DNA of 64,000 bases from the NCBI RefSeq assembly GCF_036365525.1, contig NC_090401.1:61266868-61330867 (forward strand), in the 5' to 3' direction. The translations under genes were made by a program, and so were the position numbers. The stretch is from Heterodontus francisci (taxonomy: Eukaryota). The notes beneath the pieces are model-generated. The model was not told the DNA's origin. It searched no databases and saw only the letters and a list, made by a program, of their open reading frames with translations. Positions 17,801-54,715 of this stretch are shown here, one piece after another. Positions within the stretch are counted from its first letter, which is position 1; each line of letters begins with the position of its first letter.

Positions 17801-18194
17801 ATTTTTTTTAAATGCCCCGGTCCCAACTTGAAAAGCCGCCAAACACCCACCACTGTGAATAACGCTGAACACTCGATGAGAGGTATATGGAGACATTAGT
17901 GGAAGTGTACCCCAGCAAGGAATTCACACATTCAGCAGAGGGAAGAAGGAAGAAAATTAGTGGAGGAAAAAACAGGAAGTGTAATCAAATGGTTTTTGCA
18001 ATCAATAGTTCCCAAATTCCCAGATTACAATTGCAGAGCTAAATGTGAAGGATGAATTGGATATTTCATGTAACTGTTTTACTGAGGATACAGGCCTGAG
18101 TTTACACAAATCACTAAATATTCAGATCTCAGTGGGTCTCCAACAAACTTTGATTGACTGTTGTTTGAAGAAGGAACACCGGCTATTCTTTTTT

Positions 18195-18863
18195 TTATTG
18201 TTTTCCACCGGAGAGAGACTGCTTACACTGAATAACACAGTATCTCACAATCAAATAGCACAGTTCAGCAATATTCAGCAAGATGCATACAGCTGAAGTC
18301 ACTAACATGAAAACAGTAAAGATTGTTTTCTCAGTTGGCCTAGAAACAAAACAATCCACAATATTAGGACAGGGATATTCACTGCATTTGACAAGTCTAA
18401 GCATCTTGTAACCTTCATAAACCCAATAGAATAAGTACATAAAGACAGCTTCAAATAACATTTTGAAGAAAATGCTGACCAAGTAAGTCCGAAGAAGAGG
18501 AGCATCGATTTTTGCTTTCTGCAAATCTGCAGACTGATTAAAGACTTTTATATTCTTCTTGCTTTTTTTCCTTTGATATATATGCATACCAATGAGAAAT
18601 GATGGAATGGACACAAAAAGAAGCTGGAAAACCCACAGCCTAATGTGGGAGATGGGGAAGAAACGGTCGTAGCAAACATTCCTGCAGCCAGGCTGCTGTG
18701 TGTTGCACACAAAGTCACTCTGCTCATCTCCCCATACAGTCTCAGCTGCCACCACCAAGACCAGGATACGGAAAATGAAAATGACCGAGAGCCACACTTT
18801 CCCCAGCGACGTTGAGTACTTGTTGACCCCATTCAGCAAAGAATGAAGGGAATGCCAATCCAT
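18195..18863 (-). CDS. Beta-type connexin (GJB1/GJB2-like), copy A, 222 aa, C-tail apparently truncated by frameshift
   Basis: Single-exon ORF with [42 protein letters not shown] and [16 protein letters not shown] (six extracellular Cys). Splice acceptor tttatttttag 11 nt upstream of the ATG (AG at 18875-18876). Confidence 0.93.
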
Positions 18864-21800
18864 TTTGGATTACCCTAAAAATAAATAGCACCAGTTACCT
18901 TACTGCAACTAGGAATCTGATAGGAACATAGGAATTGATAGACAATAAAAACAAAGGCCTCTCTGGTTTGCCTGCTACCAACCAGTTAGTTGCATGATAC
19001 AAGGATAATGGGGTGTTGACTAATAATAGCAATCAATTTCTATCAATTAGTTTACAATAGCCCCAAACAAGAGGCAAGGAAAACCCCAGTGGCGGAATAT
19101 TGATCCAAAGTCACCTGTTCTTCCTAACCATGCTGAATATGTCAATGTCATGTCTCAATTTACTCCTATACTGTATCCCCAAAATATCTGCTTCCCAAAT
19201 TGCTGTAAATTCTGTTATTTAACTATCAATAATAATATAAAATTAAATAAAGTGAACAAAATGGATGCAAAATGGGTGCAGATTTGACATAACTGATCTC
19301 CACCCAATTTTCTGACTGATGACGCTCAATTATGTGTAAAAACATCTACCCTTCTATGCCTAAATGCTAATCGTCAATCATGGTTTACATGACTGTTTAT
19401 CATCAAAATCTCATGCCTTTCCAAATTAGTTAGCATCAAAACTAGTATAGCAACGGGGCTACGTAGGATATTCCAAAATTCATTTTGGCAATTGGTCCTA
19501 TTGAATAGATGTTGCTGGAGACTTGTAGACACAATGTGGAAGCCTGAAATTCCCCACATTGTGAGTTCCTAGTCACAGCTGGAGCTGGTACTAAATAAAG
19601 ATGAGGTTCTTTGCATAAGAGGTTGGGGGGGCAGTGTTGGTGGGCAGGTGTGGGGGAAGAGAACATCAGTCGAGAGAATGTGATACCATGGCTGTCTATA
19701 CTCCCTGACTGCTGATTAGCAGAGGCTATGGAACCTCAATAGGCTGGCTGCTCCACCAATTTCAAGTCAGAGGTTTAAAATTCTGATCCTCTCAGTTGGA
19801 AGTTTAAATTTAACACGGCCAACAAGAACTCCACCAGGAATTAGATGCATACTGCCTGTGGATCAGCTGGAATAGGCATATATATATCACACCACACTTC
19901 CAGAAACTAGGATAAATACCCATTAGAACATTAACTGCATATCCATTACCTCAAAGGAAATAGCCACTTGCCCATCAAACCAGCACAAAAAGTAAAACAC
20001 AATAAATTTACCTCATTGATACATATTCAATAAACCACCATGTAGGTGAGCCATAATCTCATGCGATATCATTAGCAAAAATAGGAAAATTGCACCTTAG
20101 TTTGCACTCACTCCAACAAACTGAAACCTTTTATGATGAAGAGTGACATTTGTCAAGAGAAATTAAATTATGTTGCAGGTGCACATCAACATTTTTTAAA
20201 CAGGACAGTCACAGCTATATTGGAAAAAAACAACATTGAAGAAATCTGAATAGGGTCGACTTGAATTAATTCTGGTCATTTCTACAAATTTGACACTAAC
20301 TCCTGGGCCATAGCTGGCACTGACTTTTGACTAACTCCCTGAGTATTGGTTGTATCAGCCAAATGCTGACATATATCTTCGTCTCAAGAATTTCCTAAAA
20401 GTTGGTGAATATGAAACCTTTGTGTTATAAACACAATTTATGGGAACCATTGATTATAGAAAATATTCCATTTGTTGCTTAACAATAAAGCCTATTCATA
20501 ATTGTTTGATAGAGATTTAACTCTGTCTATCCCAGCTCATACCTGTGCTCAGTATTGCCCTCGCTCCTTTATTTCCAAATTCAGAGATAATCCAAGGCAC
20601 ACTTTAATTGAAACAAAAGCTATTTATTGTAACATATAATCAGGTTTATAGCTCTAGGCAGATTATTATATTCCAAACAGGCCACTGCACTGCCACTTTC
20701 TAACAAACAGAACAAATGAGTTGTATATTCCAGTTAATATATCTTACATAAGCTTAGGAGTTAAAGTCATTCAGTTTCTTGGTTCAATATCCAGGTAACC
20801 AGACCCCCTTCATGGGCTGCAGAATAATGGAGCAAAGATAGCCTGACTCCACTCCCCAGGCAAAAGAAAAGAAAAAATACTGAATCTGAAAACTTATTCA
20901 CGAATATTCTAAGATTCCTTTAGATTTCCTCAAAAAATGACTTAGGTTGAATATAAACTGTGGTAACCAGGTCACAGTGAGCATTTGACTAATGGGCCTC
21001 AGAATGTGTCAAGCAATGATGCATTTTCTGCATGGTGTTTACATTCCAACTTTATATAACTCAGTAGAATAACAAATCTTGACTGAAAGTAGAATTTGTC
21101 ATTTCATAATCTGCTACACCAAAGACTAATCTTTCTTCTCTTGTTCACTTTTCCACAATCAGTCATCACTGATGGACACAGGGTTAAGGCAACATACCAA
21201 GGAGAAGCTCAGTCTAAATCACATTGCACTTAATGAGCTTTCCACATTCCGCTGTTAAAGGCACTTTCATACTGAAGGACTGCCAACAACAGCTACTGTA
21301 CAGCACTCCCACCATTGACAGCATATTTAAAATAAAAGCCCTGAAGTTCTGGAGATATAAAAGAAATGCAGACCCAAATTTCCAGCAGGTATCTAGTTAA
21401 AAGTGAACCTGGGCAACCAGATTCCCACCTTCAGCTCTGAAAATCACAGGTGTCAGCCTCCAACTGCCTTGAGTGAAGCAGCATCAGGAAATATGATAAA
21501 CAGGAGACAGCCGTGCATTGAAGTTATGGACTTCTGTTTGAATGTGCTCTGAGACTTCTTATGACAAGCTCCACTCCTCTATAACTCAACTTTTGTTCAT
21601 TTACATGAACATCAACCAACACTGAGTTATCAGGCATTTTAGGCTCAATTATCTGGTTTTATATAAAATATTGCATTTCATCTAATTCTCTAAGGTTCTA
21701 ACATCCATCTTCTATTCAAAACATAGCTTATAATGATAAGACTTCTAATCTGCTTTAGGTTCTTTATCTTAAATGTTCTATGTATGAATCAGTTTATTTA

Positions 21801-22106
21801 TAATCCTTTTCTGTTTGGTGAACGTATTTTATAGAGTCCGCATTCCCAGAGATCTACTGAAGGTTACAAAAAGCCAGTGATCACAGGCTCACAAGGAACC
21901 TAGAAGTGAATAGGTTATAATGGCTGTAACATTTAACAATGATAAACAGAATAATCTGAAATGCTAAATAAATAGGATACACGTAAGGAGAAAATTAATC
22001 ATTTTCGCTTGATAATATTTCATTGCAAAGTCACACAATGATTTAGTGAGCCATGAAATACATGTGTGTTGTATAATCATAAATAATTCAGAAATCATTG
22101 TCTTTT

Positions 22107-22883
22107 TTAACATGTGGAATTGAGATCTGAATAGCTCTCTTGATCATTATCGAACTTTGCTGTGCTGTTATTTGAGGAAATAATAGCAGCCATTAATTGT
22201 TTGTTTTTTTCATTGCTCTCTGCTACAGAAATCAACCTTCGCTTCCATTGCATAAAGCAATACCTTACAATCAAATAGCACAGTTCAGCAATATTCAGCA
22301 AGATGCATACAGCTGAAGTCACTAACATGAAAACAGTAAAGATTGTTTTCTCAGTTGGCCTAGAAACAAAACAATCCACAATATTAGGACAGGGATATTC
22401 ACTGCATTTGACAAGTCTAAGCATCTTGTAACCTTCATAAACCCAATAGAATAAGTACATAAAGACAGCTTCAAATAACATTTTGAAGAAAATGCTGACC
22501 AAGTAAGTCCAAAGAAGAGGGGCATCAATTTTTACTTTCTGCAAATCTGCAGACTGATTAAAGATTTTTATATTCTTCTTGCCTTTTTTCCTTTGATATA
22601 CATGCATACCAATGAGAAATGATGGAATGGACACAAAGAGAAGCTGGAAAACCCACAGCCTGATGTGGGAGATGGGGAAGAAACGGTCGTAGCAAACATT
22701 CCTGCAGCCAGGCTGCTGTGTGTTGCACACAAAGTCACTCTGCTCATCTCCCCATACAGTCTCAGCTGCCACCACCAAGACCAGGATACGGAAAATGAAA
22801 ATGACCGAGAGCCACACTTTCCCCAGCGACGTTGAGTACTTGTTGACCCCATTCAGCAGAGAATGAAGGAAATACCATCCCAT
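22107..22883 (-). CDS. Beta-type connexin (GJB1/GJB2-like), copy B, 258 aa
   Basis: Same connexin motifs. Acceptor tttattcctag 11 nt upstream of the ATG (AG at 22895-22896). Candidate AATAAA on the - strand at 21793-21798. Confidence 0.95.
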
Positions 22884-24420
22884 TCTTGATCACTCTAGGA
22901 ATAAACAGCACCAGTTACTTTACTAAAGCAGAAAATCTAGAAATGTATCTGCAGATCACTTTAACAATCTTGTATGTGCATACACTTCCTGTTTAACTTC
23001 TAGCATTGATTTTTGGTCGCACTTTTATGTCAGCATTTAACAGTGAAGCTGCGTAAGTGAAAATTTACAACAGAACTTCTGTATATAAACAGTTCACTGT
23101 AATAATGTTGCTGCAGGCTCTGGCTGGTAGGTGGCACTATGGAGCAAATTTCTTTAATTCATGTCTCTAATTCAGGTGGTCCTATTGACCAGTGGATTAA
23201 TGTGTTGATGGTATGGAGTTATCGAGAATACATCCATGCCCCAAATTTTCTGCATTGTGAGTTTCCAATCACTGCAAGAAAAGATGAAGTTCTTTACATA
23301 GACAGAAGAGGGATGTAGCAGAGAGAAGAGATTCCCACCTTTAGCAGTATTCTGTCCCCATCTCCTTTTACACCATCAGGTCAGCAGACTGGCATGGTAA
23401 GGGTTGTAAGTGAACTGCTCTCTGTTTTCCCAGTGAGAGATTTGAGCACAAAAACTGAGAAAGGAAATAAAAGGTGATGTTTTCTGTAACTCCCTGAAAG
23501 GTGCCTGTGGTATAAAAATTTAAATTATTTGTTAGCTGGACAACAAGCCAGTCCTAATATATTCCTGGTCTCTGTTTAATATCTTTCTACCTCTCTTTAA
23601 TAACTCTCTTTTCAGGAATCTGTGATTATTTTGGTTTCTTATAACATAAATGCAAAATATATTTTTCTTTCCAATTTTCTCTGCTCCTGAAGGCTTTTAC
23701 TCGGTATGCGTCTATAGGAATTGACAGCACTCCAGTTCTGCGCCCAAGTGATCATTTCCCATGTGTGTGTCAGTAAGCTGTTTGATTTATGCAGTCAAGT
23801 GCAGTACAAGATACTTATATTTCTGTAAGATGTTACCATTATCTTTAATTTGAAAGGCAAGTTGAATGTCTTTTATTTAAATGATGCATCTTACAACAAG
23901 TTCATTGTGATGTTTTAAAAAGTGGTGTCAACATGATAAAGCATTTTTCAACAGTGTTTATCACGTGCATGCACAGATGTGATTGATAACTCAATGTTGT
24001 TAACTGCACTAGGGCTGACAAATTCACTACTAAAAAACCATAAAAATTCATTTAAAAAGTCTGTGCTGTTATTCCACCTAATGCTACTTTGATTTTTGAC
24101 ATAGAACTATTGAGACTCGAGTGAAAGCATTATTTGGTTTGCCTCCTGCTTTCGGCACATAAACACAGATGAGCTTGTAGATTGTGTATTGAATATGCAG
24201 GGACTGGCTATAATCACACTACATTTACCTTCTCCATCTACATCTTGTGCGCCAGTAACAAATTTGTTTCGCTCTATGTACCTTTTGGGCTATAACTTAA
24301 AATTTGATGATCTTAATCCTGAACTTTTTTTTAAAATCAGCTTTGCTTTCTGAGAGACTTTTAAGTTCTGCATAAACAGATATTAACATCAAGGTGCCTG
24401 TCAAGTATAATGAAAAGCAG

Positions 24421-46829: not shown

Positions 46830-48514
46830 ACTCTGCCTGAGCGATAGTGACAGGAGATTCTGTGGTCGCGAACGAGACTCCCGGATGGTATGTTGCCTCC
46901 CGGGTGCCAGGGTCAGGGATGTCTCGGATCGAGTCTACGGGATTCTTAAGGGGGAGGGGGAGCAGCCAGAAGTCGTGGTACAGATAAGTACCAATGACAT
47001 AGCTAGGAAAAGGGATGAGGACCTGAAAAGCGAATATAGGGAGTTAGGTTGGAAGCTAAAAGGCAGGACGAGCAGAGTAGTAATCTCAGGATTTATACCG
47101 GTGCCACGTGCTAGTGAGGCTAGAAACAGAGAGCGAGTGCAGCTGAAAACGTGGCTACGTTGCTGGTGTAGGAGGGAGGGCTTCAGTTATGTGGATCATT
47201 GGGATACCTTCTGGGGAAGGTGGGACCTGTACAAGAAGGACGGGTTGCATCTGAACTGGGCAGGTCATGCCTCACAAGCCTTATTGAATTCTTTGAGGAT
47301 GTGACAAAACACATTGATGAAGGAAGAGCAGTGGATGTGGTGTATATGGATTTTAGCAAGGCGTTTGATAAGGTTCCCCATGGTAGGCTCATTCAGAAAG
47401 TAAGGAGGGATGGGATACAGGGAAAGTTGGCTGTCTGGATACAGAATTGGCTGGCCCATAGAAGACAGAGGGTGGTAGTAGATGGAAAGTATTCAGCCTG
47501 GAGCTCGGTGACCAGTGGTGTTCCGCAGGGATCTATTCTGGGACCTCTGCTCTTTGTGATTTTTATAAATGACTTGGATGAGGAAGTGGAAGGCTGGGTT
47601 AGCAAGTTTGCCGATGACACGAAGGTTGCTGGAGTTTTAAATAGTGTGGAAGGCTGTTGTAGGTTGCAACGGGACATTGACAGGATGCAGAGCTGGGCTG
47701 AGAAGTGGCAGATGGAATTCAACCTGGAAAAGTGTGAAGTGATTCATTTTGGAAGGTCAAATTTGAATGCAGAATACAGGCTTAAAGACAGGATTCTTGG
47801 TAGTGTGGAGGAACAGAGGGATCTTGGGGTCCATGTCCATAGATCGCTCAAAGTTGCCACCCAAGTTGATAGGGTTGTTAAGAAGGCGTATGGTGTGTTG
47901 GCTTTCATTAACAGGGGGATTGAGTTTAAGAGCTGTGAGGTTATGCTGCAGCTCTATAAAGCCCTGGTTAGACCACACTTGGAATATTGTGTTCAGTTCT
48001 GGTTGCCTCATTATAGGAAGGATGTGGAAGCTTTAGAGAGGGTGCAGAGGAGATTTACCAGGATGCTGCCTGGACTGGAGGGCATGTCTTATGAAGAAAG
48101 GTTGAGGGTGCTAGGGCTTTTCTCATTGGAACAAAGAAGGATGAGAGGTGACTTGATAGAGGGGTACAAGATGATGAGAGGCATAGATAGAGTGGATAGC
48201 CAGAGACGTTTTCCCAGGGCGGAAAGGGCTATCACCAGGGGGCATAATTTTAAGGTGATTGGAGGAAGGTTTCGGGGAGATGTCAGAGGTAGGTTCTTTT
48301 GCACAGAGAGTGGTGGGTGCGTGGAATGCGCTGCCAGCGGTGGTAGTAGAAGCAGATACATTAGGGACATTTAAGCGACTCTTGGATAGGTACATGAATG
48401 ATAGTAGAATGAAGGGTATGTAGGTAGTTTGATCTTAGAGTAGGTTAAAGGTTCGGCACAACATCGTGGGCTGAAGGGCCTGTACTGTGCTGTACTGTTC
48501 TATGTTCTTTGTTC
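46830..48514 (+). mobile_element. Relatively young CR1 with an internal deletion joining ORF1 esterase to the ORF2 RT
   Basis: ORF 46885-47304 CLPGARV...DGLHLNW. Uninterrupted RT ORF 47199-48374 (YMDFSKAFDKV, GVPQGSILGP, KFADDTK). (TTCTATG)-like tail. Confidence 0.92.
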
Positions 48515-49946: not shown

Positions 49947-52900
49947 CATTGAGAGAAAAACACTTTTCTCACCTCTGTCTTAAATGGGCCACCCCTTATT
50001 TTTAAACAGTCACCCCTAGTTCTAGATTCTCCCACAAGGGGAAACATCCTTTCCACATCCACCCAGTCAAGACCCCTCAGAACCTTATATGTTTCAATCA
50101 AGTCGCCTCTTACTCTTCTAAACTCCAGCGGATACAAGCCTAGCTTGTCCAACTCTTCCTCATAAGACAACCCACCCATTCCAGATATTAGTCTAGGAAA
50201 CCTTCTCTGAACTGCTTCCAACGCATTTACATCCTTCCTTAAATAAGGAGACTGTTAAGACCAGGTGAGGAAGGGGTCTCAGGCTCCCCTCTGGCCACTT
50301 TCCTGGTTTAGCCATAACAGGGTTTAACTTTTAAAAACAGTGTTTTTAGCTTCACCTCAGTGAGTCCTTGCTCACTGCTTTCGAATTGTAATTGTAAATG
50401 AACCAATCAAACAGGCTTTCTTAAGTTTAAACAAGAAAGAATGTACGTTTATTAGCCTTAACATTCTAACTCAGTTAAAATTTCTAGAAATATGCGATGC
50501 AACCCCGCTAGCATGCATACGAGATATGTCTCTTTGGCCTCCTTATCTCGAGAGACAATGGGTAAGCGCCTGGATGTGGTCAGTGGTGTGTGGAGCAGCG
50601 CCTGGAGTGGCTATAAAGGCCAATTCTAGAGTGACAGGCTCTTACACAGGTGCTGCAGAAAAATTTGTTTGTCGGGGCTGTTACACAGTTGGCTCTCCCC
50701 TTGCGCTTCTGTCATTTTTCCTGCCAACTGCTAAGTCTCTTCGACTCGCACACAAATAGATGTAGAGGAGGAGAAAGAATTCAACGGGAAGGGTTTGGAG
50801 TAGTAGATGGAATTCAGTTACTGTTTTTAGTTTTGCTGTAAAGTCTTTGGTTGGAATTGCGGTATTGTAGTTCTCATTGGGGCCCAATGCACACTTTCAA
50901 ACTTACTTCTCTGGTACCAGAAGGATGAAGAGGTCCTCTGACTTAAGGCTTAAGTTGCTTCCGTGGGTCCCTGTGATTTTGCTTGACAGAGAGAGAGACA
51001 GGGAGATAGCTTCCTTCTCTTTTGTCTTCAAATTGCAGTCTGCCCTTTCTAGGTGGCGCAATTCAAAAAGTCCCCAGGTTGGCCAGCAGGGTAGTCATGT
51101 GACCAGCTCTTTGTTTGAAACAGCATCGTCTGCGAGGATCATTGATTTCAAAAGTTCTCCAGTCACACTCAGTGGGGGGTGGAAGTTTGACTCTTACAAA
51201 GTTAGTGGCTCTCAATGTCTTTTGATCACCAAATGATGACAAAACCCATCTCGCGAATTGAATCAGTGAGTACTCCCATTGTCTCTCTATGCAACTGCCT
51301 CTTGGAATGCAAATGTGCAGCCATGTTTTAGGTGTTCAGCTCTGTGGTCCTTTTAAACAAGTTATGTTCAATGTCCAGTAAAAATTTCAAGTAGTGTTCC
51401 ATATGACAAAATTAATATGTTTCTATTTGGCAGGTGTGATTTCCGTCACAAGACCAATACTGTACACAGTACTTCAGATGTGGTCTCACCAATGTCCTGT
51501 ATAACTGAAGCATAAACTCCCTACTTTTGTATTCAATTCCCCTCACAATAAACGATAACATTCTATTAGCATTCCTAATTACGTGTTGTAACTGCATACT
51601 AACCTTTTGCGATTCATGCACCAGGACATCCAGATCCCTCTGCATCTCAGAGCTCTGCAATCACTCAACATTTAGATAATATGCTTCTTTATTATACTTC
51701 CTGTCAAAATGGACAATTTCACATTTTCCCACATTATACTCCATTTGCCAGATCTTTGCCCACTCACTTAACCTATCTATATCTCTTTGTAGCCTCCTTA
51801 TGACCTCTTTACAACTTATTTTCCTACCTATCTTTGTGCCATCAACAAATTTAGCAACCATACCTTTGATCCTTTCATCCAAGTCATTTATATAAATTGT
51901 ACAAAATTGAGGCCCCAGCACAGATCCCTATAGCACATTACTCGTTACATCTTTCCAACTAGAAAATGACCCATTTATGCCTACTCTCTGTTTCCTGTTA
52001 GCTAACCAACTTCTAACCATGCCAATATGTTACCCCCTACACCAAGAGCTTTTATTTTCTGCAATAACCTTTGATGTGGCACCTTATTAAATGCCTTCTG
52101 GAAATCTAAGTACAGTGCGTCCACTGGTTTTCCCTTTACCCACAGTACATGTTACTTCTTCAAAGACCTCCAATTAATTGGTTAAACATGATTTCCCTTT
52201 CACAAAACCATGTTGGCTCTGCCTGATTACCTTAAATGTTTCTAAGTGCCCTGCTATACTGTCTTTAATAATAGCTTCTAACATTTTCCCTATGATAGAT
52301 GTAAAGCTAACTGGCCTATAGTTTCCTGCTTTCTGTCTCCCTCCCTTTTTGAATAAAGGAGTTACATTCACTATTTTCCAATCTACTGGAACCTTTCCCG
52401 AATCTAGGGAATTTTAGAAAATTAAAACTAACGCATCAACGATCTCACTAGCCACTTCTTTTAAGACCCTAGGATGAAGTCCATCAGAACCCAGGGACTT
52501 GTCAGCCCGCAGCTCCAACAATTTGTTCAGTACCACTTCCCTGGTGATTGTTATTTTCTTGAGTTCCTCCCTTCCTTCCATTTCTTGATTTACAGCTATT
52601 CTTGGGATGTTACTTATATACTCTATTGTGAAGACTGATGCAATATACCTGTTCAATTCATGTGCCATCTCCTTATTTTCCATTATTAATTCCCCAGACT
52701 CACTTTCTATAGGACCAATGCTCAATTTGTTAACTCTTTTCTTTTTTAAATATCTATAGAAACTCCCACAATCTTTTTATATTGCTCGCTCGCTTTCTCT
52801 TGTACTCCAATTTTTCCCTCCTTATTAATCTTTTAGTCATTCTTTGCTGCTTTTTATATTCTGTCTGAACTTCTGACCTGCTGCCCATCTTTGCGCAATG

Positions 52901-53445
52901 ATATGCTTTTTCTTTAATTCTGATAACAGCTTTAACTTTTTTGGTTAACCACAGATGGTGGGTCCTCCCCTTGGAATTTTTCTTTCGCATTGGAATGTAT
53001 CTATTCTGTGTATTCTGAAATATCCCCTTAAATGTCTGCCACTGCATCTCTATTGATCTATCCCTTAACGTACTTTGCCAGTTCACTTTTGCTAGCTCTG
53101 CTTTCATGCCCTCATAACTGCCCTTATTTAAATTTAAAATACTAGTCTTAGATCCACTCTTCTTTCGCCCAAACTGAAAGTAAAATCCAATCATATTATA
53201 ATCGCTGCTGCCTTGGGGCACCTTCACTATGAGATAATTAATTACTCCTGTCTCGTCGCACAATACCAGGTCTAGTATAGCCTGCTCTCTGGTTGGCTCC
53301 AGAATCTGGTGTTCTAAGAAACTATCCCGAAAACATTCTATGAACTCCTCATCTAGGCTACGTTTGCCCATTTGATTTTTCCAGTCTATATGTAGATTAA
53401 AATCCCCTGTGATTATCGCCGTACATTTCTGACAAGCTCCCATTA
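49947..53445 (-). mobile_element. CR1 LINE ORF2 (APE to RT), interrupted by a solo LTR
   Basis: ORFs 52754-53467 (GDFNLHIDW), 52414-52725, 52174-52371, 51661-51921 and 49946-50221. Same subfamily as 7907-9668. Confidence 0.92.
50253..51450 (-). mobile_element. Solo LTR (Gypsy-like) containing an RTE 3' end at 50528-50748
   Basis: TGT...ACA termini. Exact 4-bp TSD AGAC at 50249-50252 and 51451-51454. The CR1 rejoins across it. Confidence 0.85.
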
Positions 53446-54715
53446 TGTCATGCAGTGCAAAGTGCAAGAAACAACTTTCTGCACTTTGCTGATGGGCAGT
53501 TGTGAAGGCATGAGTTTGAATAGGTAATAACTATAATCATGTCATCTCCTAAAGTGAATAAAGTTTTCTATGATTTAAAAAAAAATCAAGTGATGCCAGG
53601 ATCATCACATAATAAAAGTGAACTGGATACTAATGAATGAAATTAGAAATTTTAGTTCTGAATGATGTTGAATGATGATAGAAAGCAAAATAGCATGAGT
53701 AATGCAATTGAAGGAGCGAAAACTAGAATTGGGACAATTTTATGAAAACAAGGAGAAACAGTGGAAATTGACAACACAATAATAGCTGCTTTGTTCAGAG
53801 TTAAAAATAGAACATGCTTTAACATATCCTACGTTTGTGGATATCTTATTCTATCATCACAAATTTCATTCATATATTGATGGCTTTGAAAATGATTTTT
53901 CAAAATAATCTATCACTCTCTTAAGAGACATTATAAATAAGCATACAATCCATCCTTTTCAACGGATTTTGACCTTAAAAATGTTTAAAACCAATGTGAA
54001 AACTAAAATAATAAATAGACTGTAGTGTGTTTCCAGTAGACCAGGCAGCATCTGGACCAGAAACGGAGTCAGGTTCCACCCATCTATTTTTTAAAGCCTG
54101 AAAGAAAGGCTTTTCAGCAAGATGCTCAGAAATATGCTAGAATGTAATCCCAAACATTGGAGGTCTGATTTTTAAAAGTCCATTTCTTTCCCACTTTGAT
54201 TTCTTATGATGTGGATTCATTAAATATTATGGGGTGTCGATAAAATATGCACAAATCCATTGACTGAATGTCCCCTTGCTGAGTTTGGAACAGCAGTAGA
54301 GGCTGACACACACTCAGAGGCCTGAACTTGTATTGAAACTTGGTCAGGTCACACTGGCAGTACTGCGTACAATTCTGGTTGCCAAATTATTAAAAAAAGA
54401 GGCACTGGAGAGGCTGCAAAAAAGTTTCACAAGGTTAATACCAGAAATGCAGGGTATACTTATCAGGAGAGAATGAACATGCTGGGTCTTTTTTCTCTTG
54501 AAAAGAGAAGGGGGAAGGCTGACCGAAAAGAGGTTTTAAAATTATGAAATGTTTTGATGGAGTAGAATATTTCCACTTGTGGGGAACAGCAAATCCAGAG
54601 ACTATCAATATAAGATAGTCATCAAGAAATCAAACAGGGAATTCAGAAGAAACTTCTTTACCCAAAGAGTGGTGAGAATGTGGAATTAACTAGTAGTGAC
54701 CGGGTGAGGTGAATA

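Follow-up and report, generated by a model that had tools for sequence, protein, structure and literature searches.

Copy-specific ends and a shared core in the tandem connexin genes gjb11.1 and gjb11.2 of Heterodontus francisci, most likely through gene conversion

CCR2 and CCR5 are tandem paralogues under concerted evolution, in which the central part has been overwritten and the termini have stayed copy-specific. Within the connexins, a passage of PMC6726660 mentions gene conversion as a possible reason for the tree of amniote Cx26 and Cx30. A functional asymmetry is described for Cx26 and Cx32, where voltage-gating polarity is determined by the charge at residue 2, mixed residue-2 charge within one hemichannel leads to bipolar gating (PMC4276742), and rectification of the heterotypic junction depends also on charges in E1 (PMC2229461). 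The cartilaginous-fish-specific gjb11 group takes a basal position in the beta subfamily according to Mikalsen et al. (2021, PMC7914757), who had already assigned the names gjb11.1 and gjb11.2; the main text of that paper names and places gjb11 without giving it a function, and neither 'conversion' nor 'concerted' occurs in it. No description of gene conversion in gjb11, and no assay of a gjb11 channel, was found in the literature searched, with subscription journals outside that search and the supplement of PMC7914757 checked for 'gjb11' only.

We analysed a window of 64,000 nucleotides, the whole stretch of Heterodontus francisci DNA examined here, in which two similar connexin genes lie in tandem. 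Very probably this is a gjb11.1/gjb11.2 pair that likely arose by duplication before the shark-ray split, whose core has most likely been rewritten by gene conversion while heads and tails stayed copy-specific, and for which opposite gating polarity is predicted.

Identity and layout of the gene pair

The two genes form a same-orientation pair on the minus strand at an offset of 4020 nt. The genes and their upstream features are as follows.

18195..18863, minus strand: gjb11.1, the short copy; single-exon coding sequence, 222 aa, Asp2; matches Rt-gjb11.1 in the supplement of PMC7914757.
22107..22883, minus strand: gjb11.2, the long copy; single-exon coding sequence, 258 aa, Gly2; upstream of gjb11.1.
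18864..18904, minus strand: likely splice acceptor, predicted from sequence, and end of the 5' UTR; 80% identical to 22884-22924.
19459..19617, no strand assigned: upstream duplication relic, 72% identical to 23137-23300.

Both products belong to the connexins. The connexin domain (Pfam PF00029) is precomputed for proteins P0001 and P0010, alignment to solved Cx26-type chains gives an E value of 2e-94, and, of the family hallmark of four TM segments and three cysteines per extracellular loop, the cysteines are invariant. All matches of at least 72% identity among the best 120 of 966 listed in the protein search are chondrichthyan, which places the pair in the gjb11 orthogroup, and its DNA agrees with whale-shark Rt-gjb11.1/.2 when compared by eye. 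These are the same genes as gjb11.1 (the short copy) and gjb11.2 (the long copy) of Mikalsen et al. (2021): in heads, cores and order they agree with the whale-shark entries and with the rows of Table S6. The spacing is 4.0 kb in H. francisci and is given as 5.2 kb in Amblyraja, 5.6 kb in Chiloscyllium and 6.5 kb in Rhincodon (PMC7914757, supplement), with the gene order of the Table S6 rows for Amblyraja and Chiloscyllium being the one seen here. Protein and DNA searches of the H. francisci genome found neither a third copy nor a haplotig.

Upstream of the coding sequences the copies are less alike. In the 41 nt preceding the ATG, 33 positions are identical and 8 differ. Further out, patchy similarity had been predicted and was found between 19459-19617 and 23137-23300, where 105 of 146 aligned positions are identical and the alignment scores 73, the best of 20 shuffles reaching 42. 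The patch is a candidate for a possible shared regulatory element. A dispersed repeat was considered for it and set aside, as a genome search returned the self match only, at a coarseness that missed even the partner patch. There is a dispersed repeat (contig depth >300) upstream of the short copy at 19014-19183, which may explain the 340-nt shift of the conserved patch. The remaining window carries many decayed LINE-type reverse-transcriptase/endonuclease frames (286-2032, 47172-48374, 52414-53530 and others) and short palindromic repeats.

Contigs of runs X8 and X9 (RNA by guess) cover the short copy, with none on the unique parts of the long one; this is no evidence for a silent long copy. 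One 1513-nt contig of X8 covers the short gene without a difference. The X8/X9 contigs (17900-19223) continue past the likely acceptor without splicing, as far as about 19204-19223, which may reflect intron retention, a start that is not spliced or the presence of DNA in the run.

Divergence between the copies within and between species

Counted exactly, 18247-18863 and 22267-22883 differ at 14 of 617 positions and contain unbroken identical runs of 244 nt (18247-18490) and 196 nt (18643-18838), all as originally predicted, and the eight predicted amino-acid differences are present at residues 2, 4, 5, 95, 101, 107, 117 and 125, in the N-terminus and from the end of TM2 through the loop to the start of TM3. 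Codons 1-205 hold five synonymous codon differences beside these eight changes. Silent sites are homogenised as well, with 2 of 75 fourfold sites differing between gjb11.1 and gjb11.2; in ten other connexin pairs of the genome, which include three linked beta genes from this contig, 48-75% of fourfold sites differ and the longest identical runs are 11-20 nt. No signal of GC-biased conversion was seen in GC3, which at 0.49-0.50 for the pair lies inside the range of the other connexin loci (0.36-0.79). In gene order, the short copy divides as follows.

18839..18863, minus strand: copy-specific head, codons 1-9; D2/H4/S5 against G2/Y4/F5 in the partner, 22859-22883.
18643..18838, minus strand: identical tract 2, end of the N-terminus, TM1 and E1 (codons 10-74); partner 22663-22858.
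18491..18642, minus strand: middle zone, TM2, cytoplasmic loop and start of TM3; 9 transitions in 152 nt; partner 22511-22662.
18247..18490, minus strand: identical tract 1, TM3, E2 and TM4 (codons 125-206); partner 22267-22510.
18195..18246, minus strand: copy-specific short tail; its partner is the long tail, 22107-22266.

The middle zone was probably converted less recently than the tracts. The tails had been said to diverge abruptly after the motif CYLIVRYC; they do diverge, with 24 of 49 nt identical in codons 206-222, but silent divergence begins at codon 206, three codons before the motif ends.

Nineteen sharks and rays (H. francisci and 18 others) yielded both copies; Rhincodon contributed the long copy alone, and Pristis and Callorhinchus one protein each. 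The resulting set of 41 gjb11 proteins, including the two of H. francisci, came from the protein search (best 120 of 966 matches) and cluster look-ups, with P0005 (a lynx protein, 62%) and P0145 (another model of Callorhinchus P0016) omitted; the evidence across species is mostly protein and not DNA. A tree of the core (residues 34-181) sorts by species and needs 17 changes of copy label. A long-copy clade appears in none of 200 bootstrap trees and is rejected by an AU test that leaves out Pristis and Rhincodon (p = 5e-21). The tree of the ends (residues 1-13 and 208-222) sorts by copy with a single change and support of 82/94, on just 28 columns and with copy labels partly derived from those ends; AU tests on the same alignment do not reject grouping by species (p = 0.089 for batoids, 0.145 for the H. 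francisci pair). Non-circular support for copy-specific ends comes from classing the proteins by length alone, when Gly2 is found in 20 of 21 long proteins (the exception, with Asn2, being the single Callorhinchus gene) and Asp2 in 19 of 20 short ones (the exception being the single Pristis gene). A homogenised part that sorts by species between flanking parts that sort by paralogue, with moderate support at the ends, is the pattern of concerted evolution by ectopic recombination, and the two trees support the old duplication with recurrent homogenisation that had been proposed.

Mean distances between copies within a species, and between copies of different species, trace the extent of this process along the protein. 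They are 0.45 and 0.45 in the head, 0.06 and 0.09 in residues 14-40, 0.006 and 0.027 in E1, 0.019 and 0.124 in TM2, 0.034 and 0.275 in the cytoplasmic loop, 0.042 and 0.18 in TM3, 0.008 and 0.06 in E2, 0.18 and 0.24 in TM4, and 0.67 and 0.70 in the tail. The N-terminus and tail are kept apart in all species, and in most species TM4 is too. The copies grow gradually more alike from residue 2 to about residue 35 and diverge again from 182 onward; such a gradient could come from distance to the diverged flanks without selection. Judged by core distance, the closest relative of 24 of the 38 copies is their own paralogue; 6 are equidistant from paralogue and nearest orthologue, and the other 8 lie closer to an orthologue. 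These 8 all belong to congeners or to Amblyraja/Leucoraja, and overwriting therefore recurs on roughly the time scale of genus-level divergence. At the DNA level, read by eye, codons 41-80 and 141-180 show no difference between the two whale-shark copies, which there have in common 11 synonymous differences from the H. francisci pair.

The direction of transfer varies. The H. francisci short copy carries long-type residues at 7 and 11 and across TM4, and by eye its DNA is short-type up to codon 9 and long-type from codon 10; the Carcharodon long copy has short-type residues at 19, 28, 33, 182, 184 and 194. These sequences suggest that conversion is patchy and bidirectional, and that in H. francisci long-copy sequence overran the short copy to codon 10 and across TM4.

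The duplication likely predates the shark-ray split, some 250-300 million years ago. It may postdate the split from holocephalans, as one gene was found in the chimaera. For Pristis pectinata one gjb11 gene is listed. Its protein (P0012) combines a long-type head (12-13 of 13) with a tail of the skate short type (9-10 of 19, against 5 of 19); it is either a deletion hybrid between the two cores or a collapsed assembly.

Explanations of the shared core

A collapse during assembly or polishing could make two copies look alike, and no contig from the two DNA runs examined, both of one sample and possibly the assembly's own source, spans the whole stretch. The original prediction had named this risk, and contig depth speaks against it. 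The tract 18247-18490 is covered by one contig at a depth of 23.4, against 11-12 in the unique flanks, and without alternative letters; because depth doubles over these 244 nt, two real copies are present. Both versions of the middle zone occur as separate contigs at single-copy depth (10.4-10.7), a 3269-nt single-copy contig links the upstream region of the short gene to the tail of the long one, and the pattern is repeated in the records of 18 other species. Collapse is an unlikely cause of the likeness, indeed a barely credible one. Cores that sort by species would also be expected from independent recent duplications in each lineage, or from purifying selection alone, the E1 and E2 of connexins being strongly conserved in any case (distance of 0.03-0.06 between species). 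However, heads, tails and gene order are common to sharks and rays, and ends specific to each copy in this conserved order already contradict such a reading; the H. francisci flanks are about 30-50% diverged, and silent sites and the variable loop are shared within species. Either explanation is very improbable. Gene conversion in the strict sense is a non-reciprocal transfer that leaves copy number unchanged, and these data do not separate it from rounds of unequal crossing over, with deletion and re-expansion via hybrids, which might homogenise the cores in its place. The single Pristis gene, with its long-type head and skate short-type tail, is just the deletion hybrid that this would produce. 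Yet 19 species retain one long and one short copy with no third found in H. francisci, the 4-kb spacer is single-copy, and the tract ends are patchy and two-directional, leaving this route quite unlikely.

Another question is why the core should be shared. The original prediction held that ongoing conversion keeps both extracellular docking loops identical; on this reading conversion is favoured for that reason, and the cytoplasmic loop is left free to differ. All nine core differences in H. francisci do fall between the loops, in 152 of the 592 nt (p = 1.5e-4 for uniform placement, a post hoc test), and changes at docking-loop residues 168 and 173 are common to both copies in 19 of 19 species. 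Over the 19 species, however, the cytoplasmic loop is homogenised equally. E1 and E2 show 9 within-species differences against 30 shared lineage changes, and TM2, loop and TM3 show 43 against 150 (Fisher p = 1.0); the docking loops are thus no more homogenised than the remaining core, on few counts from related species in which a small excess could be missed. Differences also fall elsewhere in other species, Heptranchias having three in the docking loops and none in the cytoplasmic loop. Special maintenance of the docking loops is not supported and we consider it unlikely. Because mean distance in the cytoplasmic loop is 0.034 within species against 0.26-0.29 between species, the H. francisci loop differences are recent mutations awaiting overwriting and not a preserved zone, and their clustering is best read as two recent tracts flanking an older one.

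Old duplication with recurrent conversion is supported because the core sorts by species, the ends sort by copy, the flanks are diverged and read depth indicates two copies. A duplication before the shark-ray split would have given short and long tandem copies, whose cores (about residues 34-181), silent sites and fast-evolving cytoplasmic loop included, would then have been overwritten repeatedly by conversion running in patches and in both directions. Selection probably keeps residues 2-5 and the tails apart; for conversion itself the spacing of 4-6.5 kb and the long homology may suffice without selection.

Predicted gating and comparison with known systems

Residues 2, 4 and 5 differ between the copies in all 19 species, and the long heads have no acidic residue in positions 1-13 (20 of 20). 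In skates and rays, the short heads of all seven (P0017, P0143, P0144, P0131, P0134, P0132, P0018) have four acidic residues among the first 13, including Glu12 where other examined beta connexins have Gly. The K-N docking group is described as having Lys and Asn at Cx26 positions 168 and 176 (PMC6163895); K159, N167 and D170 are found in all 41 gjb11 proteins, which places them in this group. Since residue-2 charge differs and the docking residues are compatible, a compatible pair with opposite gating polarity is predicted. Both proteins would dock and co-assemble freely; the short copy, with Asp2, would close on relative positivity like Cx26, and the long copy, with Gly2 and residues 1-13 free of acidic residues, on relative negativity like Cx32, so that asymmetric gating would be expected where two joined cells express different copies.

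It is conceivable, if doubtful, that the pair is purpose-built for rectification, conversion keeping docking and assembly compatible while sensor and tail differ, with a short/long junction acting as a diode. If so, conversion would have kept the pair compatible for the whole of shark-ray history, with skates and rays pushing the head contrast further, and the genes would represent an asymmetry of the Cx26/Cx32 type that was invented independently a second time, as well as a natural chimera experiment on gating polarity.

Two further sets of positions bear on assembly and on CO2. Leu-Arg is the alpha-type assembly motif and the W-type (beta) motif is a di-tryptophan at the loop/TM3 border, as set out in PMC6163895 and PMC5267329. 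The relevant codon in the pair is the following.

22509..22511 in gjb11.2 and 18489-18491 in gjb11.1, minus strand: codon 125, Trp against Arg, at the R-type/W-type oligomerisation motif site (Cx26 W134).

Across the 41 gjb11 proteins the border reads Leu-Arg in 35, Leu-Trp in 5 and Leu-Gln in 1, none being the di-tryptophan present as WW in the six other beta genes of the H. francisci genome. The long copy of H. francisci has changed to Trp125, in agreement with contigs at single-copy depth, and two stingrays have Trp at this position in both copies. As a beta-clade connexin with alpha-type Leu-Arg, gjb11 bears on the origin of the two assembly classes. CO2-sensitive beta connexins have Lys125 and a basic residue 104 with a short or proline-rich tail. 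At the carbamylation positions (Cx26 R104 and K125), both H. francisci copies have Lys, at codons 103 and 116; K116 (equivalent to K125) occurs in 41 of 41 proteins, and K103 aligns to R104 beside a one-residue deletion in a loop 8 residues shorter. The short copy, with its short tail, is a weak candidate for a CO2-opened hemichannel.

Taken as a whole, this is a known gene pair under a known, ordinary process, with a testable functional prediction. It offers a clear-cut example of concerted evolution for a channel gene of vertebrates, under way since before sharks and rays diverged, and cautions that trees of connexins based on conserved domains alone will read gjb11.1 and gjb11.2 as many recent duplications. 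As the copies differ almost only in head and tail, they also lend themselves directly to testing the control of gating by residue 2 and tail length.

The pair resembles amniote GJB2/GJB6 (Cx26/Cx30) in consisting of tandem beta connexins, one short-tailed and one long-tailed. Unlike the shark genes, GJB2/GJB6 stem from a separate duplication from gjb8, which is present elsewhere in sharks (L003), and both amniote proteins examined have Asp2 (P0026, P0046), whereas the shark copies differ at residue 2. With the Cx26/Cx32 heterotypic junction the pair has in common an acidic against a neutral residue 2 and K-N type docking loops on both sides, the functional likeness being predicted. Cx26 and Cx32, however, are unlinked and diverged throughout, whereas in gjb11 the ends alone differ and the E1 charges are identical between copies. 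A parallel in process lies in a different family, that of CCR2/CCR5, where central overwriting is likewise combined with copy-specific termini.
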